Below, piece by piece: positions 7,639-44,801 of a stretch of DNA of 64,000 nucleotides. Within the stretch, counting starts at the first letter, position 1, and every line of letters starts with the position of its first letter. A model generated the notes under the pieces. It searched no databases. It saw only the letters and a list, made by a program, of their open reading frames with translations, and was not told the DNA's origin. This stretch comes from an uncultured Candidatus Saccharibacteria bacterium (GTDB lineage: Bacteria; Patescibacteriota; Doudnabacteria; UBA920): assembly GCA_964536745.1 (NCBI GenBank), contig CAZHYL010000003.1:1001-65000 (forward strand), in the 5' to 3' direction. The position numbers and the translations under genes are program-made.

Positions 7639-9467
7639 CTGGGTTCCAGTCTATGGGTTATTCAAGCTATAACACAGCGATTAGCGAACTAGCTGCTTCA
7701 GAAGCAAATGTTTATGCCATAGATTCAACTGGTGCAGCGTTGCGTGATGCTAATCACTGGAGTTATGCTGGACTTAAGACAGTTACCTCAAGCATGGTCA
7801 CTGTAACCAAAAATGTATTGGGGTTAAATTACCCAGGTTTACCTACAAGTTTATCTGCGACTCCTAGTAGTTCTTCTGTGGCGCTTTCATGGACAGCTCC
7901 AGTAGCAAATGGTGGCTCGGCAATTACTGATTATGTTATCCAATATAAAACTAATGCCGCTTCAACGTGGTCCACATTTAACGATGGAACTTCTACTTCC
8001 ACATCTGCTACAGTAACTGGACTAAGCGGTGACACAGCATATAACTTTAGGGTAAAAGCTGTTAACTCAAATGGCGGTGGTAACTATACAACTGTGAATG
8101 CAACCACTACTGACGGTTCGGCTCCAACAATTTCATCAGTTACTGTTTCTGTTAATCCAAATAATACTCAAGCCACGATCTCTTGGACGACTGATGAATT
8201 GGCTTCTAGCTTGGTAGACTATGGAATTAGTTCATCCTATGGAAATTCTACTGTCGAATCTGATACTTCTCCTAGGGTCTTGAACCATTCAGTTACAATT
8301 TCATCATTATCACCATGTGCAATCTATAATTATCGGGTAAAGTCCACCGATGCGAATAGCAATTTAGCCACGGGTTCTAATGGACAATTCCAGACTGATG
8401 GTTGTACGTCAGAAGTTTTAGAATCTGGTTCGTTTTTTGTGGATGATTCTACAGGTATGAGTGTAGGTGCCTCTGGTACCCCAGGTGTTCGTTTGGGTGT
8501 TCCAGCAGGAGCTGCCGGGGTAGACGCAAGTTTTCAAGTTATGAAAATTGACTCTGACAGCGCGGTTGATGCCGTAGGGTTACCTTCCGGATTTTCTTTA
8601 GTAGGTGATCATACTTATGAGTTAAGAGCTTATGAAGATGTTGGCAGTGCAATTTCATCTTTTAATAGTCCGATTACTGTTGTGATTGAGTATGAAGACG
8701 CCGATGTCGCTGGTCTAAATGAATCTAATTTAGTTATTTACCATTACACTGGAGGTAATTGGACTTCTCTCGCTCCATGTACTGTTAACACCAGCGCTAA
8801 CACTGTAACCTGTTCTACCACCAGTTTCTCTTTGTTTGGTCTTATGGGTACTGCAAGCGCATCTGGTGGTTCTTCTGGCTCACAAACCAAACACCCAGTA
8901 GGCACAAACATTGTTACCGATGATGGAACAATTTACACACTTACAGCTGATGGCAAGCGTAGACCATACACTTCTGCTGGTGCGTTCTTAAGTTATGGTT
9001 TTAACTCTTTTGCTACCACAGTCAAAGCTTTGAAAGGGGACTTAGCCATCCCCGTAGGCTCATTCATTCCTCCTCGTGACGGCTCTATTACTTGTTCTGA
9101 CAGGGGAGAAGACAGAGGCACCTGCTATCTCATTACCGATGGTAAAAAAGCTGGCTTTACCTCTGCTACTGTATTTACATCCTTAGGGTTCTCCTTCCTA
9201 AATACTCAGTACGGTGATGTCTCCTTCATGGAATCAGCACCTAATATTTCCACCGCCCAGCAGGCTCATCATATTGGCACCCTTATTAACAACGAAGGCA
9301 CTCTTCAAATTATTGCCTCCCAAGCCTTAGTTGGTATTCCATCCATGTCCGTCTTAACCTCTTGGGGCTACAACCCTGCAACTGCTGTCTTAGCTAATAC
9401 TTATGACAAGCTCCTAGAACAAACCCAAGTGCTGACTACCAGACTAGCTGGAGTGCTAGATTTTTAA
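7635..9467 (+). CDS. C-terminal part (610 aa) of the same surface protein. It holds the rest of the SGNH esterase domain (block V 'DANHWS'), FN3 and PAP-N-like FN3 modules, a Cys-containing domain and three copies of the shared ~38-aa C-terminal repeat.
   Basis: Begins '…GFQSMGYSSYNTAISELAASEANVYAIDSTGAALRDANHWS' (SGNH block V D-x-x-H). Frame 0 is open back to 7614 and overlaps the end of the upstream ORF in another frame. The C-terminal repeats match those at 1140-1861 and in 41138-41821. Confidence 0.7.
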   Translation: MTGFQSMGYSSYNTAISELAASEANVYAIDSTGAALRDANHWSYAGLKTVTSSMVTVTKNVLGLNYPGLPTSLSATPSSSSVALSWTAPVANGGSAITDYVIQYKTNAASTWSTFNDGTSTSTSATVTGLSGDTAYNFRVKAVNSNGGGNYTTVNATTTDGSAPTISSVTVSVNPNNTQATISWTTDELASSLVDYGISSSYGNSTVESDTSPRVLNHSVTISSLSPCAIYNYRVKSTDANSNLATGSNGQFQTDGCTSEVLESGSFFVDDSTGMSVGASGTPGVRLGVPAGAAGVDASFQVMKIDSDSAVDAVGLPSGFSLVGDHTYELRAYEDVGSAISSFNSPITVVIEYEDADVAGLNESNLVIYHYTGGNWTSLAPCTVNTSANTVTCSTTSFSLFGLMGTASASGGSSGSQTKHPVGTNIVTDDGTIYTLTADGKRRPYTSAGAFLSYGFNSFATTVKALKGDLAIPVGSFIPPRDGSITCSDRGEDRGTCYLITDGKKAGFTSATVFTSLGFSFLNTQYGDVSFMESAPNISTAQQAHHIGTLINNEGTLQIIASQALVGIPSMSVLTSWGYNPATAVLANTYDKLLEQTQVLTTRLAGVLDF

Positions 9468-36162: not shown

Positions 36163-38073
36163 GTGTTTTAAAATCTGTTCGGCTTTTGCTTTGCCAACTA
36201 GTTTTTCTAACTCACGAATCGGTGTCTGTTTAATATTTTGAACAGTACCGATTTTTTGTTTTAACAATTTTTTAGTCTTGGGGCCAATTCCAGGAATGCT
36301 ATCAAGAGCAGATTTTACTGCTTGTTTACTGCGTAGGGATTTATGAAAAGTTATTCCAAAACGGTGAGCTTCGTCGCGAAGTCTTTGTAGCATTTGCAGT
36401 ACTGGATTGTCATGAGGTAATACAATCGGGTTAGGATTATTTGGTAAAAAGATTTCTTCGATTCGCTTGGCTAAACCAATAACAGGAATTTTCAGCTTTG
36501 CTTTCCTTAGTACTTCTACTGCAATACTAAGTTGACCTTTACCACCATCAATAACGATTAGGTCGGGGATAGGCCAATATTCCCCTCCTTTAAAGGAGGG
36601 GTTAGGGGAGGTTTTTACCCCCTCCATCTCCCCCTTAGAAGGGGGAGAGATCCGAGCCAAACGGCGTTGGAGCATTTCTCTCATCATGGCAAAGTCGTCC
36701 GGAGTGTTTTTACTGGTAATTTTGAATTTTCGGTATTCCGATTTCGCGGCTTGGCCATCTTTTATAACCACCATGCTGCCGACAGGGTTTGTTCCTTGGG
36801 TGTTACTAATGTCATAACCTTCAATTCTTCTTGGGGTATGGGGAAGTTTGAGGAGAGTTTTTAGCTCTTCAAGTATTTCTTTTAATAAATCTAAATTAGC
36901 GGCTTGAGAACTCTGCCACTTTCTTAAAAATTCTTCGGCATTGGTTTTACCCATGCCAATTAATTTCAGTTTATTTCCTCGACTAGGAACACTAATCTTA
37001 ATTGTGTTTTTGCTTCGAGACTTAAGTAATAGCTGAATCAACTGTATTTCTTCTGGTGCTTCTTCTATGAAGATTTCTTTTGGCAAGTCTGTAGTTTGGG
37101 AGTAATAATTTTGAAGGAAACTATTAAGAACGGATTTAATTCTGAATTCTGGTGCAAAACCTAAAATATTATCAAAGATAAAAGTTTCGTTATCTTTTAG
37201 TTTGCCCTCTCGGACTTTAAATAGATTTACCCCCGCGGATAATTCATCCGTGAAAACAGAAATAAAATCCCAATCTACTTTTTGAGCAAACATAGTGAGT
37301 TGCTTTTCGTCTAAAATTTCAATCGCATTTAATTGATCTCTAAGTCTGGCGGCTAGCTCGAATCGTTTTTTCTTTGCTGCTTTTTTCATTTCTGCGTGAA
37401 GCTCTTTTTTAATTGGCGCGGTCTTGCCAGAAAGAAAAAGAGTGATACGGCCTAGTTGTTCTTCATATTCTTTAAGAGTAATTTGGCCAATACAAACACC
37501 AGGACAGCGATGTAAGAAATAGTAGAAACAAGGTCGTTTGCCAATTTCCTTGTTTGCGCAGAAAGGAAAGATGCGGCGAGTTAAATCTAAAGTTTGACGA
37601 ATTTTTTTTGCTGATGAATATGGTCCGAAGAATTTACTTCCCCTCCTTTTTAAGGAGGGGCTAGGGGAGGTTTTAACCCCACCCACCCTCCCCTTAGAAA
37701 GGGGAGGGGTACTTTCAACTTTTCGAGCATAAGTAATCTGAGGAATTTCTGAAGAGTAATCGATTTGAATGAACGCATAATTTTTATCATCACGGAGCAT
37801 TATGTTGTACGGTGGCATATGCTCTTTGATGAGCGTGTTTTCCAAGAAGAGACTTTCAAGCTCGGTTCTTACTACTATGTATTCAAAATCTACAGCCTCG
37901 GCCATAAGGAAGGGGAGCTGGGCACGGTTGTCGGACTTTCCGAAGTACTGACTAATTCTTGATCGTAAATTTTTGGCTTTGCCTACATATAAAACAACCC
38001 CTTCTTTATTAAGGAATTTGTATACACCGGGTTTTCGGGGGACATCTTTTAATTTAGTTCTTAGCTTGTCCAT
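36157..38073 (-). CDS. uvrC: Excinuclease ABC subunit C carrying two in-frame inserted palindromic elements.
   Basis: GIY-YIG N-terminus (PGVYKFLNKEGVVLYVGKAKNLRSRISQYF), 'FFGPY', 'PDLIVIDGGKGQL' and a C-terminal HhH. Two segments, …SPPSKGEMEGVKTSPNPSFKGGEY… and …TPPLSKGRVGGVKTSPSPSLKRRGS…, are not part of the UvrC consensus. Confidence 0.85.
   Translation of the reverse strand: MDKLRTKLKDVPRKPGVYKFLNKEGVVLYVGKAKNLRSRISQYFGKSDNRAQLPFLMAEAVDFEYIVVRTELESLFLENTLIKEHMPPYNIMLRDDKNYAFIQIDYSSEIPQITYARKVESTPPLSKGRVGGVKTSPSPSLKRRGSKFFGPYSSAKKIRQTLDLTRRIFPFCANKEIGKRPCFYYFLHRCPGVCIGQITLKEYEEQLGRITLFLSGKTAPIKKELHAEMKKAAKKKRFELAARLRDQLNAIEILDEKQLTMFAQKVDWDFISVFTDELSAGVNLFKVREGKLKDNETFIFDNILGFAPEFRIKSVLNSFLQNYYSQTTDLPKEIFIEEAPEEIQLIQLLLKSRSKNTIKISVPSRGNKLKLIGMGKTNAEEFLRKWQSSQAANLDLLKEILEELKTLLKLPHTPRRIEGYDISNTQGTNPVGSMVVIKDGQAAKSEYRKFKITSKNTPDDFAMMREMLQRRLARISPPSKGEMEGVKTSPNPSFKGGEYWPIPDLIVIDGGKGQLSIAVEVLRKAKLKIPVIGLAKRIEEIFLPNNPNPIVLPHDNPVLQMLQRLRDEAHRFGITFHKSLRSKQAVKSALDSIPGIGPKTKKLLKQKIGTVQNIKQTPIRELEKLVGKAKAEQILKHL
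36577..36648. repeat. GC-rich palindromic element copy A (about 70 nt) inserted in-frame in uvrC. It encodes SPPSKGEMEGVKTSPNPSFKGGEY.
   Basis: 'cccctcctttaaaggaggggttaggggaggtttttaccccctccatctcccccttagaagggggaga' is made of nested inverted repeats (CCCCTCC-TTTAAA-GGAGGGG; TCTCCCCCTT-CTAA-GGGGGAGA). About 60% GC against an about 38% GC background. Confidence 0.75.
37636..37710. repeat. GC-rich palindromic element copy B inserted in-frame in uvrC. It encodes TPPLSKGRVGGVKTSPSPSLKRRGS. It is about 85% identical to copy A, with the same orientation and frame.
   Basis: 'cccctcctttttaaggaggggctaggggaggttttaaccccacccaccctccccttagaaaggggagggg' aligns to copy A with few substitutions. Confidence 0.75.
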
Positions 38074-38154: not shown

Positions 38155-41046
38155 ATGCCTAAGAAATCAATATCAAAACCGAGCACAAAGTCCTCTAAGA
38201 CAAGCGCAAATAACGAACAGAAAATTGTTATTCGTGGTGCTCGTGTTCATAATTTAAAAAATGTGGACCTAGACTTACCTCGTCACAAATTAATTGTGAT
38301 GACAGGTTTGTCTGGGAGCGGAAAGTCTTCCCTTGCGTTCGATACTATCTATGCCGAAGGTCAACGTCGTTATGTTGAGTCTCTTTCTGCGTATGCGCGA
38401 CAGTTTATTGGGTTAATGGATAAGCCAGACGTAGATAAAATAGAAGGACTTTCTCCAGCAATTTCAATCGATCAGAAGTCCGCCTCTCATAATCCTCGTT
38501 CTACTGTTGGTACTGTCACAGAAATTTATGATTACATGAGATTGCTTTACGCCAGAATTGGTATTCCTCATTGTCCAACTTGTGGTGAAAAAGTTGAAGG
38601 TCAGACCCTTCAGGCTATTGTCAATCAATTGTTAGAAATGGCAGAGGGCACTCGAATTATGTTACTGGCCCCTGTTATTCGTGATCAAAAAGGTGAACAT
38701 AAATTAGTCTTTGAGCAACTTAAAAAGTCTGGTTTTTCTCGTGTAAGGGTAGATGGTACAGTAATGGATTTAAATGAAGCTAGTTCTTTGAATTTAGATA
38801 AGCAAAAGAAGCACAGCATTGAAGTTATTGTTGATAGAATTGCTATCAGTAAAGATGACCGTGCACGGCTTAGCGAAAGTTTAGAAAAGACTTTAGATTA
38901 TGGCGATCAGCTGGCTTTAGTTTTGGTAATGGATGGCGATAAGATAAAAAGTGAACTTCCATTTTCACAAAAGTTTGCTTGTCCTAATGGGCACTCAATT
39001 GCTTTAACCGAACTAGATCCTCGCGAATTTTCATTTAATAGCCCTCATGGTGCTTGTCCGGAATGTAAAGGTCTTGGTACAAAGTTAACTGTTGAACCAG
39101 ATTTAGTTATTCCAAACCCAAAGTTAACTTTAGCCGAAGGTGCTATTAGGCCATGGAGCAAAACAACCGCACGAATCTCTTGGTATAGTAGAGTTTTGGA
39201 AATTTTAGCGGAAGAATATGGTTTTTCTGTAAACACGCCTGTTAAAGATTTGCCAAAGAAAGCTTTAGAGATTGTATTGTATGGTACTGGCGGCAAAAAG
39301 ATTACTATGCCAGCAGATTCAGGGCGAACTTATCAGGCAAATTTTGAAGGAGTAATCGCCAATTTGGAACGTAGATACGTTGAAACAGACTCCGATTATA
39401 TGCGAGGCGAGATAGAAAATTACATGAGAATTCGCAAGTGTGGCACTTGTGGTGGTCGCAGATTAAAACCAGAAGTGCTCTCTGTTACAGTTGGCGGGGA
39501 AGGTATTGTTGATGTTTCTAGTAAGTCGATTGAAGATGCTAGTACATTTTTTGAAAACTTACCGAAACAGCTAAACGCTAAAGAGATGGCTATCGCGAAA
39601 TTGATTCTTAAAGAAATTACAGCACGGCTTCAATTCTTGCTCGATGTCGGATTGTCTTATTTATCTTTGGATCGTGGTGCAGACACTTTGAGTGGTGGGG
39701 AAGCACAGCGTATTCGTCTAGCTACACAAATTGGCTCTGGTTTAACCGGCGTACTTTATATTTTAGATGAACCTTCAATTGGTTTACATCAGCGCGATAA
39801 CTCACGCTTATTAACCACGCTTAAGAATCTGCGCGACTTAGGAAATACTGTAATTGTTGTTGAGCACGATGAAGAAACAATTCGAGAAGCCGATTATGTG
39901 GTAGATATTGGTCCTGGTGCTGGTAAACATGGTGGGGAAATCGTTTCAGAAGGAACTCCTGAAGAAATAGTTAAGGATAAAAATTCAATCACTGGTATGT
40001 ATTTAAGTGGGAAGGAAGAGATTGCTGTCCCTAAGAAACGCCGTAGCGGTTCTGGAAAAAAGTTGGAAATCTATGGGGCTACAGAAAATAATCTAAAGAA
40101 CGTTAATGCCACAATCCCACTTGGGAAGTTTGTTTGCATTACCGGTGTGTCTGGAAGTGGGAAGTCTACTTTGTTAAATGATATTTTAGCTAAAGCACTG
40201 TCCAAATATTTCTGGAATAGTAAAGATGAGCCTGGTGAACATAAAAAACTTCTTGGTATCGATCATATAGATAAAATGATTAATATCGATCAATCTCCAA
40301 TTGGTCGGACACCACGTAGTAATCCAGCTACCTATACTGGCATTTTTACCTATGTTCGAGATTTATTCGCTGAAACCAGAGAGGCAAAAATGAAGGGTTA
40401 TAAAGCTGGTCGGTTCAGTTTTAATGTAAAAGGTGGTCGTTGTGAGAAATGTCAGGGCGATGGTGTTATTAAAGTAGAAATGAATTTCTTGCCAGACGTC
40501 TATATTACTTGTGAGGAATGTGGTGGTAAGCGTTACAACCGAGAAGCTTTAGAAATCCATTACAATGGCAAAACAATTTCAGATGTCTTAGAAATGACAG
40601 TGGATGAAGCCAAGGTATTTTATGCGAACATTCCTCCTGTAAAGAGAAAGTTAGATACTCTTTCTGAAGTCGGTTTGGGTTATATGCACTTGGGTCAAAA
40701 TGCTACAACACTATCTGGTGGAGAAGCTCAGCGTATTAAACTTGCAACCGAATTGTCCAGGGCTTCTACCGGACGAACTTTATACATTTTGGATGAGCCA
40801 ACTACTGGACTTCACTTTGCGGATGTAAAAAGGCTGATTCATGTGTTAAATCAATTGGTTGAAAAAGGTAACACAGTAATCGTGATTGAGCATAATTTAG
40901 ACATGATTAAAACAGCAGACTGGATTATTGATCTTGGTCCAGAGGGAGGGGATAAGGGTGGCCAGATTGTTGCTAGTGGTACTCCAGAAGACGTAGCGAA
41001 GATAAAAAATAGTTTTACAGGACAGTACTTAAAGAAGATGTTGTAG
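38155..41046 (+). CDS. uvrA: Excinuclease ABC subunit A.
   Basis: Two ABC ATPase modules (Walker A '[12 protein letters not shown]' and '[12 protein letters not shown]', signature 'LSGGEAQR' twice) and zinc-finger Cys clusters. 963 aa. Confidence 0.9.
41016..41045 (+). repeat. Direct repeat copy 1 (last 30 nt of uvrA, TACAGGACAGTACTTAAAGAAGATGTTGTA). Copy 2 is at 41847-41876.
   Basis: Identical 30-mers 831 bp apart that bracket the 41138-41821 gene. Confidence 0.7.
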
Positions 41047-41137
41047 ACCCCCCCGAGCAATTCGAAGATGGTTTTATTTCTGAATGAAGTAAAATGGAGT
41101 ATAATGATACCGGGTTTAAGATTTTAGAAATAATACT

Positions 41138-41821
41138 ATGAAAAAATATATTTTCGGGTTTCTAGCAATGACATTATTGCTACCAAGCACTATTCACGCA
41201 GCAACTCACCCCGCTGGCACTAATATCAAGAATGCTCAAGGGACAGTTTATAGGATTGAGACCGAACTGGACATTAGCGCATTGCCGTACAATTCTGCAA
41301 ACGCATTTTTATCTTATAAGTTTAATTCTTGGAATAATGTGGAAGAAGCCAATAGCGAAGATTTAAATTTGATTAGCGCCTCATCAGGGGTCATTCCACC
41401 ACGACCAGGTTCATTGATAAATGACAATGGTACGATTTATCAAATCCTTCTTGGTTCTAAGGTTGGTTTTATTTCCGAAGAAGTATTTACAGGCTTGGGT
41501 TATTCATTTACAAACGTTTATCCGGCCGACGTCTCATTTATGAATGCCGATGCACCGATTGATTCGATTGAACAAAGACATCCGCTAGGCACTTTGGTCA
41601 ATGATAATGGCACGCTCTTTATTAATTTGATTACTAGTAAAATCGGGGTTCCATCCATGGCAGTCTTAGATTCTTGGGGGTATTGGGTTGAGGATGCTGT
41701 ACCAGCGAATAATTTTGATCGGTCATTTATGATGTCTGCTATCGCACGAGAACGCAAACCTAGCGAATTAACAATTTTTGATACTGAATTTGGTCAGATC
41801 GTGGCTAATGGAGCCCTCTAG
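41138..41821 (+). CDS. Secreted protein (227 aa) consisting of a signal peptide plus the shared ~38-aa repeat seen at the C-termini of the giant FN3 proteins.
   Basis: Signal peptide MKKYIFGFLAMTLLLPSTIHAA. Repeats 'GSLINDNGTIYQILLGSKVGFISEEVFTGLGYSF' and 'GTLVNDNGTLFINLITSKIGVPSMAVLDSWGYW'. Confidence 0.65.
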   Translation: MKKYIFGFLAMTLLLPSTIHAATHPAGTNIKNAQGTVYRIETELDISALPYNSANAFLSYKFNSWNNVEEANSEDLNLISASSGVIPPRPGSLINDNGTIYQILLGSKVGFISEEVFTGLGYSFTNVYPADVSFMNADAPIDSIEQRHPLGTLVNDNGTLFINLITSKIGVPSMAVLDSWGYWVEDAVPANNFDRSFMMSAIARERKPSELTIFDTEFGQIVANGAL

Positions 41822-41846
41822 GATATCCCAAAAATTTGAAACATTC

Positions 41847-41905
41847 TACAGGACAGTACTTAAAGAAGATGTTGTAAAAAAAACGGGCTTAGCCCGTTTT
41901 TTATT
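41847..41905 (+). repeat. Direct repeat copy 2 of the uvrA 3' end (41847-41876), followed by a rho-independent terminator (AAAAACGGGCTTAGCCCGTTTTTT).
   Basis: The sequence is identical to 41016-41045 except that the stop-codon base becomes TAA. The hairpin CGGGCT-TA-AGCCCG is followed by a T-run. Confidence 0.7.
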
Positions 41906-42269
41906 TTCTGTAGTTTAAGTATATTAAGGAAATAATTTTTGATAAGTTAATTCCGATGAGCGCGATTAAAAGCCAATAGTCTATTTGATGGTGAGCAAAT
42001 AATTGATATAGAACGCCGACAGATAGCATGACTGTGCCAGTAATCATGGCTACTCTGTTTGCAATCTGTCTGTGATAGCTTTCTCTTTCATCTTCTTTTG
42101 GACCTTCTCCAACCAAAGACATGGCTGTAACGTAAACAACTAAAGCAGCACTAATTCCAAGCATTGTGGTCATTTCCATATTTCCGGTTGTTTGTCCTTG
42201 CGAGAGTAAAAAGCCAGTGACAATAGCTAAAAATACAAGCAGAGATAAATAATAGATGATTAATTTCAT
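41901..42269 (-). CDS. Small integral membrane protein (about 4 TM), co-transcribed with the XRE regulator.
   Basis: Hydrophobic 122-aa ORF starting 18 nt downstream of the HTH gene. Confidence 0.45.
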   Translation of the reverse strand: MKLIIYYLSLLVFLAIVTGFLLSQGQTTGNMEMTTMLGISAALVVYVTAMSLVGEGPKEDERESYHRQIANRVAMITGTVMLSVGVLYQLFAHHQIDYWLLIALIGINLSKIISLIYLNYRK

Positions 42270-42286
42270 AAGGTTATTGTAACATT

Positions 42287-42478
42287 TTATAAAGAAAAGA
42301 TTTCTTCGACGGATTTATTGAAATATTTTGCGATTTGCATAGCAAGCAGGAGTGATGGAACATAATTACCTTTTTCTATTGCGATAATTGTTTGTCTGGA
42401 CACGTTTAAAATATCAGCCAAGTCTTCTTGGGTGATATTTTTATCTAATCTTAATTGCTTAATAGTATTTTTGATCAT
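42287..42478 (-). CDS. XRE-family helix-turn-helix transcriptional regulator.
   Basis: 'LRLDKNITQEDLADILNVSRQTIIAIEKGNYVPSLLLAMQIAKYF' is a canonical Cro/C1-type HTH. Confidence 0.75.
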   Translation of the reverse strand: MIKNTIKQLRLDKNITQEDLADILNVSRQTIIAIEKGNYVPSLLLAMQIAKYFNKSVEEIFSL

Positions 42479-43530
42479 TATCCGAAAGTAAAGGTAAAGA
42501 TTTGTGTGCCACTATTTGGGAGCTCTATTTCTAGTGTGTGCTGACCACCATTAGGTGATTCGTATAAAGGGTATAAGTCGGATTCCTTTATTGTTACTCC
42601 TTTTTCTAATTTTCCATCAATGTATATCTTTGCTGTGATTGGTTCTGGACTTTGCGCAACCATAAATACTTTAGCTGCATTAAAGTTTAGTCTTAATCTA
42701 CCAAAACCTTGCGAGTGAACCACTGCTTCTTGTTCAAAACTCCATCTACCTTCTAACGCAAATTTGTTTTTGGCTAGTTTACTTGGGAAGGCATAAATTT
42801 GTTGCTCGGTGCTAGGACTTTCGGTTCCACCAAAATTGGCAAGTCTGGCAAGTCCCAGATAGATTTCTGGTGTTGCTGCCTGATTTGTTTCCGAGGCTTT
42901 CGGGGTTTCAAAATCTCCCTCGAGCCCTAACAAAGTTCTAATAGCTAACTCGGTTTGTTCGTAATTTCCTTCGCCAAAATGGGTGTAAACAATTTCGCCA
43001 TTTTTATCAATTAAATAGTGTGCCGGCCAGAATTGGTTTTTGTAGGCACTCCAAGTTTTGTAATTATTATCTTGTGCAACAGGGTAAGCAATGCCGTAGC
43101 GCTTAAGAGCTGTTTCAACATTGCTCGTAACTTTTTCAAAAGCGAATTCAGGCGTGTGAACACCTACTACAACAAATCCTTGATCTTTGTATTGGTCATA
43201 CCATTTTGTTATGAAGGGGAGAGTGCGAATGCAATTTATACACGAATAAGTCCAAAAATCTACCAAGACAACCTTACCTTGTAGTTGCGCTATGGTTAAC
43301 GGTTCGGTATTTAGCCATTTTGTAATCCCAGTAAATTCTGGCGCTGCTCCTTGGTTTACAAACTTCAGTTTTTTATCTTCAGGCGCAGGCGTAGTGTTGT
43401 TAGTGGTGATAGGTTTTTTCTCGAAGATTGCATTAAGCGCACCGTCTTCTCCTTTTCTGTATTCGATAAACAGACCAGCAGCAAGTACTAGTAAAACTAA
43501 AATAGAAACAAGTAAGATAATCTTTTTCAT
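42478..43530 (-). CDS. Secreted thioredoxin-fold thiol:disulfide oxidoreductase (TlpA/ResA/DipZ-like redoxin). It has a CxxC variant 'CINC' and a ~150-aa C-terminal extension domain.
   Basis: N-terminal TM segment. 'VVLVDFWTYSCINCIRTLP' is a thioredoxin-like active site. Adjacent to ccdA. Confidence 0.55.
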   Translation of the reverse strand: MKKIILLVSILVLLVLAAGLFIEYRKGEDGALNAIFEKKPITTNNTTPAPEDKKLKFVNQGAAPEFTGITKWLNTEPLTIAQLQGKVVLVDFWTYSCINCIRTLPFITKWYDQYKDQGFVVVGVHTPEFAFEKVTSNVETALKRYGIAYPVAQDNNYKTWSAYKNQFWPAHYLIDKNGEIVYTHFGEGNYEQTELAIRTLLGLEGDFETPKASETNQAATPEIYLGLARLANFGGTESPSTEQQIYAFPSKLAKNKFALEGRWSFEQEAVVHSQGFGRLRLNFNAAKVFMVAQSPEPITAKIYIDGKLEKGVTIKESDLYPLYESPNGGQHTLEIELPNSGTQIFTFTFG

Positions 43531-44250
43531 TTATTCGGTGGGGATAATTTTACTTTCTAGGCTTCCAAAATCGTAGAATTCCAAAAGTTTGGATTGAATC
43601 ACTAAATCATATTGGAAATACATAGTAATCGCTAGTGCGATAATTATTAAGCCAAAGATTTGTTGGATTCTATTTGTGTAAGGGGCAATTGCTCTAACTT
43701 TGTTAGAAATTAATTGTCCACCATAAGCAATTACCAGCATTGGAATACCTGCACCTAGTGCATAGGCAGTAAGGAGTATTCCGGATTCAGCTGAACTGCC
43801 TTGTGTTGCGATTAAAGTTAAGATTGATCCTAACACTGGCCCTGCACATGGTGTCCAAATTAAGCCAAGCATAATGCCCAAGATAAACCCACTTAAATTT
43901 CCTGTTCCTGCTTTTGAAGATAAGCTAGTGGCTTTGGTGGTGAAGGTACTTAAGTATGCTGTAATTTTTTCGAAGGGCGTTGGCCAAAGTGTAAACAGTC
44001 CAAAAATAGCTAGGGCGACTACTGCAATATCACGAACTAGGTCTGGTGATATGTTTAGCGAGATGGTTATCCAAGACAAGGTTAGACCTACAATCGTAAA
44101 CATCACAATAAAACCTAGCGCAATGAATAAGGGTCTAGTTTTAGAACTGGTTCCAACCGAACTACCAAGTAAGATTGGGAGAAGGGGGAGTATGCAAGGA
44201 GCGCCAACGGTTAGTACCCCTGCTAATATCGCAAAAAGAATTTCTAACAT
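43531..44250 (-). CDS. ccdA: CcdA/DsbD-family transmembrane thiol-disulfide electron transporter.
   Basis: 'TVGAPCILPLLPILLG' and a second 'TPCAGPVLG' are the two conserved Cys motifs of CcdA. About 6 TM. Confidence 0.7.
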   Translation of the reverse strand: MLEILFAILAGVLTVGAPCILPLLPILLGSSVGTSSKTRPLFIALGFIVMFTIVGLTLSWITISLNISPDLVRDIAVVALAIFGLFTLWPTPFEKITAYLSTFTTKATSLSSKAGTGNLSGFILGIMLGLIWTPCAGPVLGSILTLIATQGSSAESGILLTAYALGAGIPMLVIAYGGQLISNKVRAIAPYTNRIQQIFGLIIIALAITMYFQYDLVIQSKLLEFYDFGSLESKIIPTE

Positions 44251-44801
44251 TATTTTAAATTCTTTTTAAGTGCGTCAATGTCTCCGCCGCTCCATTTAGA
44301 AATCATATTTCCTTCGCTGTCAATTTGTACAAAAGTATGTTGATAGGTTATACCATATTTCTTTTTTAAATCAGAGCTGTTGTCGTAATCAGTTTTGATT
44401 ACACTCACACCTTGTGGTATTTGGTCTATGTTATTTAAGAATGCTGTGTTGGCAGTTTTACAGGTAGGGCACCATGCTGCGTGGAAGAAAAGCACCACTG
44501 TTCTGCCTGCTTTTTGTTGTTCTGCTACAAGTTCAGGAGAATAATCTAAGTATGCCCCTTTTCCTGCCCATAAATCTGAACTAGATTGTGCATCTTCTTT
44601 ACTCATCATCTTTTCATCAGCAGTCATTTTTTCAACAGGAATTTCCTGAGGTTTTGCTGGGGCTTTTGTCTGTCTAGAAGAAGCTTGTTGACTACTATTA
44701 TTAATCAGATAGACCCCAATGCTTATGATTACAGCTGTCATGATAATTAAAGGGAGCAAGATTTTTTTGTTCATTTTCGTTAGTTTAATTCTTGTAATCA
44801 T
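44250..44801 (-). CDS. Membrane-anchored thioredoxin-like protein (WCPTC active site).
   Basis: 'VVLFFHAAWCPTCKTANTAF' is a canonical thioredoxin CxxC. N-terminal TM segment. Confidence 0.6.
   Translation of the reverse strand: MITRIKLTKMNKKILLPLIIMTAVIISIGVYLINNSSQQASSRQTKAPAKPQEIPVEKMTADEKMMSKEDAQSSSDLWAGKGAYLDYSPELVAEQQKAGRTVVLFFHAAWCPTCKTANTAFLNNIDQIPQGVSVIKTDYDNSSDLKKKYGITYQHTFVQIDSEGNMISKWSGGDIDALKKNLK

Follow-up and report, generated by a model that had tools for sequence, protein, structure and literature searches.

The stretch of DNA analyzed here (64,000 nt from an uncultured Candidatus Saccharibacteria bacterium of the GTDB lineage Doudnabacteria, contig CAZHYL010000003.1; hereafter the window) carries a gene for a 227-aa protein, ORF227 (41138–41821), directly behind uvrA. 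The gene sits between two exact copies of a 30-nt sequence, TACAGGACAGTACTTAAAGAAGATGTTGTA (41016–41045 and 41847–41876). A scan of the window allowing up to three mismatches returned only these two occurrences, both exact; no such repeat is expected by chance, and shuffled sequences yield none. Copy 1 closes the uvrA coding sequence, while copy 2 runs into a second uvrA stop codon, TAA, and a hairpin terminator at 41878–41902 (Table 1). A preliminary description of this DNA had reported the repeat and had placed a terminator after its second copy only; both observations stand, with no terminator called in the spacer between uvrA and ORF227.

The vestigial uvrA tail behind ORF227

The repeat extends well beyond 30 nt. 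At an offset of 832 nt, similarity continues for ~56 nt further upstream, where uvrA 40960–41015 and the segment 41792–41846 match at 32 of 55 positions (~58%); 9079 random windows match at 14.2±3.3 positions and at no more than 28 (z ~5.4). The duplicated unit is ~87 nt of the uvrA 3′ end (41792–41877), perfect over its last 30 nt only. Over the 19 upstream codons, the differences between the active stretch (d1) and the degenerate one (d2) fall 6/4/13 on codon positions 1/2/3, and eight codons differ synonymously only. The last nine codons of ORF227 and its stop (GQIVANGAL-stop) come from this relic. That tail is present in none of 67 ORF227 homologues; the family core ends near …ELTIF, where many of the homologues stop. 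Annotation of the inserted gene therefore calls for caution, because the C-terminus of its product is recycled uvrA sequence. From its sequence, we read the DNA 3′ of ORF227 as a vestigial ~87-nt uvrA 3′ end, which retains the old TAA stop and terminator.

The spacer between uvrA and ORF227 carries a further scar. Its segment 41061–41091 (31 nt) aligns to ORF227 itself at 41455–41485 (codons SKVGFISEEV), with 27 of 32 positions identical and two 1-nt gaps. The alignment scores 35, compared with 17.8±2.2 for shuffles, none of which reached 35 in 500 trials (z ~7.6). The fragment is probably a remnant of another ORF227-like copy, and its presence indicates that the locus has been remodelled more than once. 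Near the 3′ end of the insert, the only hairpin is a weak one of 9 bp (41815–41852).

The same arrangement, 99–100% identical, was found in more than 20 contigs that span both copies and derive from different samples and assemblers (MEGAHIT and SPAdes assemblies in ENA, and Logan), and therefore is not an assembly artefact. The preliminary description had held that a repeat belonging to a longer duplication of uvrA 3′ sequence would point to such an artefact; the longer duplication exists (~87 nt), but the artefact does not follow from it. Repeats of 30 nt like this one break k = 31 assemblies at the spot. Three Logan (k = 31) contigs end at, or no more than 5 nt from, a repeat boundary (L025, L194, and L195; comparison loci are given by L numbers), and the P0188 contigs stop at the first base of copy 2, as a k = 31 graph predicts.

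Among contigs retrieved with the exact UvrA sequence or the exact sequence of m122, the convergent 122-aa neighbor, every one that runs past the end of uvrA or of m122 enters the insert. Single-nucleotide polymorphisms (SNPs) between strains respect its borders. One strain (L028) has 11 SNPs within 40758–41010, ending just before copy 1, and none thereafter; most of the other strains show SNPs again from 41910 on, beginning just past the terminator, with none in between. SNP tracts that stop at both ends of the insert are what would be expected if the recombination partners were free of it, a pattern that is suggestive but not proof. More broadly, strain divergence at 34819–37906 and 41910–44577 is mosaic (compared with L002, L004, L014, and L020): tracts with 0.8–2.4% SNPs alternate with multi-kilobase SNP-free stretches, which indicates frequent homologous recombination within the species.

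Table 1. Features of the uvrA–ORF227–m122 locus, in window coordinates.
Feature	Position	Strand	Description and basis
uvrA	38155..41046	+	963 aa, intact, stop TAG; from the ORF list; the identical gene of L001 has UvrA Pfam domains
d1, stretch of the active uvrA tail with a degenerate second copy downstream	40960..41015	+	19 codons; in-register identity to 41792–41846
c1, exact 30-nt repeat, copy 1	41016..41045	+	1 base of the preceding codon, the last nine uvrA sense codons, and TA of the stop
Spacer, 91 nt	41047..41137	+	No terminator hairpin; 31-nt ORF227-like fragment at 41061–41091; TATAAT at 41100–41105
ORF227	41138..41821	+	227 aa; putative signal peptide and three ~55-aa repeats; family-homologous core ends near 41791
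d2, degenerate uvrA-tail relic	41792..41846	+	GQIVANGAL-stop-DIPKI-stop-NI; two stops and a 1-nt deletion; first 30 nt are the last nine codons of ORF227 and its stop
c2, exact 30-nt repeat, copy 2, and the A completing the old uvrA stop TAA	41847..41877	+	Exact repeat match
Bidirectional hairpin terminator	41878..41902	.	Common to the uvrA/ORF227 unit and the convergent 122-aa gene; from terminator scan and fold; equivalents lie directly 3′ of the uvrA stop in relatives
m122, convergent 122-aa membrane-protein gene	41901..42269	-	Conserved right-hand neighbor; marks the empty site in sister lineages

The uvrA–m122 junction and displaced uvrA tails in the clade

We retrieved relatives by means of the UvrA C-terminus and of the fast-evolving m122. 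Those without ORF227 keep the order uvrC, uvrA, terminator, (m122 and a helix-turn-helix gene), and thioredoxin-like genes. In the most compact case (L188/L189), the convergent uvrA and m122 are only 33 nt apart, with the terminator within this gap. In the closest relative by m122 (L196, 80% identity), the uvrA stop is followed by a terminator, ~370 unrelated nt, a second terminator, and m122, for a gap of ~450 nt, and a terminator also lies directly 3′ of the uvrA stop in L108 (UvrA tail 94% identical), L109, L112, and L115/117, all lacking ORF227. The gap measures 513 nt in L190 and 578 nt in L192, compared with 855 nt in the window; L190/191 and L192/193 were grouped as loci with 513–578 nt and two small ORFs. 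There, the filling (L190 5392–5852; L192 5395–5915) consists of an ORF of 71 or 76 aa co-directional with uvrA and an opposite-strand ORF of 60 or 83 aa, with a terminator between them.

Because syntenic sister lineages lack the gene, one of them with a gap of only 33 nt, ORF227 is a later insertion into a variable hotspot, the uvrA–m122 junction. This agrees with the preliminary proposal, made before any relatives were compared, that uvrA formerly ended in …QYLKKML-stop followed directly by its terminator; across the relatives, the site is either empty or differently filled. Among the relatives compared, ORF227 together with the uvrA relic is confined at this junction to the species of the window. 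An ORF227-family gene does occur behind uvrA in one other lineage. In L007 (UvrA 85% identical), a gene at 1674–3122 (482 aa, 39% identity to ORF227, E = 3e-39) begins 98 nt after uvrA, directly following the uvrA terminator, and is itself followed by a gene for a 1624-aa multi-glycosyltransferase. This makes a fragment of the form uvrA tail, stop, spacer, and ORF227 plausible as a donor, although the identity of the L007 gene is only 39%. The degenerate stretch d2 points to no nearest allele, being 55–67% identical to every uvrA tail tested.

Displaced uvrA tails recur in the clade. In L120 (2060–2429), uvrA is followed by a 145-nt insert and then by a second uvrA tail of 115 nt, whose reading frame is intact and whose differences from the active tail fall 5/2/24 on the three codon positions (24 of 31 at third positions). 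In L123 (3484–3566), a 52-nt hairpin insert precedes a 33-nt relic (consensus TGQYLKKIL-stop; differences 2/0/5) and a terminator, and in L121 (4387–4487), a 77-nt insert precedes a relic of 21 nt whose sequence equals that of the active L120 tail. Including the window, 4 of 23 clade loci carry such tails. Among uvrA loci of other phyla, the count is 0 of 63 (P = 0.004), and among further long ORFs of Doudnabacteria-type loci, it is 3 of 357 (P = 3e-4). In L120 and L123, divergence is mostly synonymous, which shows that both tails evolved as working genes in different lineages and that one copy came from another lineage. The short inserts of L120, L121, and L123 are mutually unrelated, and some form hairpins. 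They were also considered as repeated miniature inverted-repeat transposable elements (MITEs), an identification that was rejected when no meaningful second copies were found among the fetched loci.

These tails bear on whether the window could have arisen by local tandem duplication of the uvrA tail, through slippage or unequal crossing-over, with ORF227 inserted later between the copies and the second copy decaying in place. In favor of such a history, the two copies run collinearly in one orientation, and the 31-nt ORF227-like scar in the spacer attests to repeated rearrangement. Uniform neutral decay, however, cannot produce 41% divergence over 56 nt beside 0% over the adjacent 30 nt (P ~1e-7), and the overwhelmingly synonymous differences in L120 and L123 are those of copies that evolved as functional genes in different lineages. 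Moreover, two independent rare events would be needed at the same few bases. A purely local origin therefore seems quite unlikely to us.

Origin of the insertion

The preliminary description interpreted the 30 bp as the target-site duplication of a promoterless cassette, delivered by a transposase-like, cassette-type, or template-switch mechanism. Such an origin would account for an exact 30-nt repeat flanking a ~830-bp single-gene unit and for the lack of a terminator between uvrA and the gene. The duplication is not confined to a staggered cut, however; homology runs ~56 nt further in register, and the right-hand copy belongs to a longer uvrA relic, of which it is the perfect end, rather than being newly duplicated. 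No terminal inverted repeats pair the insert ends at 41046 and 41846, and no transposase or integrase is encoded in the 831-bp unit or among the annotated genes and domains within 10 kb (RNase J, SecG, UvrC, thioredoxin/DsbD, HrcA-GrpE-DnaK-DnaJ, and similar). Both the unit and the 30-mer are single-copy in the window. Rfam returned nothing apart from sub-threshold terminator-like matches for the locus, and a structured RNA was rejected as well, because strain SNPs (41910 and 41919) disrupt the apparent pairing of copy 2 with sequence past the terminator.

Integron gene cassettes resemble the insert in that they too are single-gene units of less than 1 kb, possibly without a promoter of their own and expressed from upstream. 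The window differs in that inspection revealed no RYYYAAC or GTTRRRY core motifs and hence no attC hairpin with R″/R′ core sites, no IntI is found among the annotated neighbors, there is neither an attI nor a cassette array, and the flanking repeat is host coding sequence. Furthermore, exact flanking repeats of at least 20 nt accompany only 3 of 89 ORF227-family matches, namely the window (30 nt), L084 (27 nt), and L053 (20 nt, between tandem paralogues), while L058 has a low-complexity 14-mer flanking repeat. The TATAAT motif upstream of ORF227 also sits poorly with a promoterless unit. Taken together, insertion of a cassette with target duplication is barely credible.

The insert could also be the remnant or satellite of a site-specific integrative element, in which the uvrA 3′ end would serve as attB for a tyrosine or serine recombinase, the 30 nt would be the att core that restores the gene, and ORF227 would be leftover cargo, the integrase having been lost or acting in trans. 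Integrative elements that carry a replacement 3′ end for a conserved target gene include tRNA- and tmRNA-targeting islands and the elements phage 21 and e14 in icd, and elements that restore their target in this way, such as the tRNA- and icd-integrating ones, typically have a block of identity ending exactly at the stop codon. The window has the same att-like architecture: its direct repeats include the 3′ end of a conserved gene, its 30-nt block of identity ends exactly at the stop codon, and relatives have an empty site. The enrichment of uvrA-tail duplications in the clade points in the same direction.

A further parallel is found in L084 (5030–6381), where an ORF227-family gene (5257–6180, 307 aa) lies between 154-nt direct repeats that are ~88% identical, with 27 consecutive nt matching exactly. 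Both repeats combine the remains of the tail of the gene upstream (NYEYGGLLR-stop) with a terminator and a 3′ portion of tRNA-His, which is a classic mark of att sites; the intact copy of this tRNA gene occupies 6308–6381 (minus strand). L084 therefore holds a second mini-island, whose ends are att-like.

What the window does not share with such elements is the enzyme and a fixed site. No recombinase gene lies within the element or within 10 kb of it, and the insert measures 831 bp with one cargo gene. Independent insertions do not have the same crossover position, as relic length varies (21 nt in L121, 33 nt in L123, 87 nt in the window, and 115 nt in L120) and the inserts are unrelated; these variable boundaries argue against one site-specific enzyme and favor homology-anchored recombination, in which a new tail with downstream DNA is added and the old tail displaced. 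The arm upstream of the 30-nt block is decayed uvrA coding sequence and not a recombinase-binding arm, and neither the ORF227 family nor the 30-mer was found in the viral contigs of IMG/VR, which speaks against carriage by phage. We consider a site-specific integrative element unlikely. A more speculative variant, and a decidedly long shot, is that Doudnabacteria may harbor tiny non-autonomous “tail cassettes,” single surface-protein genes that pass from genome to genome by attaching to the terminal ~30 nt of strongly conserved genes (uvrA in the window; tRNA-His in L084) via host recombination or an unrecognized trans-acting recombinase, with the perfect 30-mer kept as the attachment site while the rest of the tail decays.

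With moderate confidence, we favor a history in which the conserved 3′ end of uvrA anchored the recombination that placed ORF227 behind it, with no transposase or cassette integrase involved. In keeping with such a history, the insert has duplicated uvrA sequence on both sides, and uvrA itself is intact. A foreign Doudnabacteria fragment, consisting of a uvrA tail, the stop TAG, the spacer, and ORF227 without its last few codons, would have paired with the resident uvrA tail. Integration would have been additive, either by a single (Campbell-type) crossover of the re-circularized fragment or by homology-facilitated recombination of a linear fragment, displacing the old 3′ end downstream. Either route would leave an intact uvrA, the imported spacer and gene, and a leftover uvrA tail of ~87 nt with the original TAA stop and terminator. 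ORF227 would thereby have lost its own end, so that it now terminates inside the leftover tail.

The relic is chimeric, its upstream 56 nt being foreign or old (third positions saturated, with stops and a frameshift) and its last 30 nt being identical to the resident tail. The perfect 30 nt may be the crossover or heteroduplex-conversion tract of the integration itself. Alternatively, they may have been kept identical later by recombination with insert-free alleles, whose homology would end exactly at the two copies. The strain SNP data are compatible with such refreshing, in a suggestive way.

Two known processes resemble the proposed event. In E. coli, a single crossover of a re-circularized molecule carrying part of the target locus produced a duplication of 109–950 bp around the insert at the end of lacZ (PMC3240628). 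The window likewise has a direct duplication on either side of the insert, an intact target gene, and no element-encoded enzyme; it differs in that the shared segment is only ~87 nt, the copies are strongly divergent in one part and identical in the other, and the donor circle is hypothetical. In Rhs, contact-dependent inhibition (CDI), and type VI secretion system (T6SS) effector loci, displacement of the C-terminal coding end has been proposed and attributed to homology-facilitated illegitimate recombination: incoming DNA is anchored by a conserved coding region upstream, a new 3′ end enters along with the gene that follows it, and the former 3′ end becomes an orphan further downstream (PMC5361080 and references therein), a pattern that L120 and L123 match closely. 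Here the differences are that uvrA is a housekeeping gene with no selective reason for a tail swap, that the displaced piece in the window is tiny, and that the passenger is an unrelated secreted protein and not an immunity gene.

Several observations weigh against recombination anchored on uvrA. No empty allele was seen within the species in the lookups by exact UvrA and exact m122, and no donor of ORF227 was found; its nearest homologue is 57% identical and is not beside uvrA. The third-position bias of the window relic is marginal (chi-square P ~0.055), and 23 differences in 56 nt followed by none in 30 have a probability of ~1e-7 under a uniform rate. No one-step model gives 0/30 beside 23/56, and conversion or refreshing must be postulated as an additional step. 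In the codons of the 30-nt block, sister species that encode the same peptide (TGQYLKKML) depart from the window at 5–6 of the 9 third positions; an old or foreign tail should differ as well, and hence we infer that the 30 nt were homogenized. In the experiments in E. coli, true homology-facilitated illegitimate recombination gave deletions of recipient DNA and not duplications (PMC3240628). Finally, a site-specific integrase supplied in trans could also account for the enrichment of uvrA tails and for the tRNA-His-flanked gene in L084.

The feature most plausibly belongs to a known general class of recombination scars rather than to a new type of mobile element, and its recurrence across the clade is modestly interesting. 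Natural competence has been shown in Patescibacteria (PMC10187176, PMC10633639), and the recurrent displaced uvrA tails in one clade suggest that homology-anchored uptake of foreign DNA, plausibly by natural competence, is a regular route of gene gain. The window offers a clean and dated case in which a Patescibacteria genome, ultra-small and gene-dense, has gained a gene without damage to its neighbors: incoming DNA lands on the conserved end of a housekeeping gene, and the tail that it displaces is left as a record.

ORF227 product, family, and expression

The N-terminus of ORF227 resembles a Sec signal peptide by inspection (MKKYIFGFLAMTLLLPSTIHA followed by AT), with a match to LPAM below threshold, and the protein has no Pfam domain match. 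A confident AlphaFold2 model (pLDDT 91.4) contains three repeated beta-beta-beta-alpha units of ~55 aa each. The best PDB matches of this model are the EccB repeat domains of type VII secretion (E ~3e-4), with a TM score of only ~0.2. ORF227 would be a secreted, surface-type repeat protein with a putative cell-surface or wall-associated role.

The ORF227 family is multi-copy and occurs mostly in Doudnabacteria-type (Patescibacteria) genomes, with 79 loci in GTDB genomes, none of which has uvrA within 6 kb. A mobile cassette family was considered and rejected, given this absence of uvrA and given that flanking repeats are not a family trait. Elsewhere in the window, large ORFs (278–9443 and 1160–1828) encode fibronectin-III-like repeats, and their DNA repeat families have a period of ~1.2 kb. 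The C-terminal parts of these proteins are paralogous to ORF227, with 44% identity at 8892–9443 and 28% at 1160–1750.

Transcription of ORF227 by read-through from uvrA is plausible because no terminator is called between the two genes (fold z = -1.55 for the spacer). This part of the preliminary description, which had portrayed ORF227 as a promoterless read-through passenger of uvrA, is retained, whereas the lack of a promoter is unproven: a consensus TATAAT lies at 41100–41105, 32 nt before the ORF227 ATG, accompanied by a poor -35 element. The upstream region of the nearest homologue shows no promoter homology to it. ORF227 may plausibly be transcribed by uvrA read-through, from its own -10 element, or both, with transcription ending at the old uvrA terminator.

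Two further inserts were observed next to this locus, in uvrC on the minus strand (37638–37706 and 36580–36647). They are in frame, GC-rich, ~70 nt long, and 85% identical to each other, and the fold of each is a run of three hairpins (dG ~-44 to -46 kcal/mol). UvrC thereby gains peptides such as PPLSKGRVGGVKTSPSPSLKRRG; in this, the inserts are like palindromic elements that enter coding genes in frame. GC-rich motifs of a similar kind occur 3′ of uvrA in L119.

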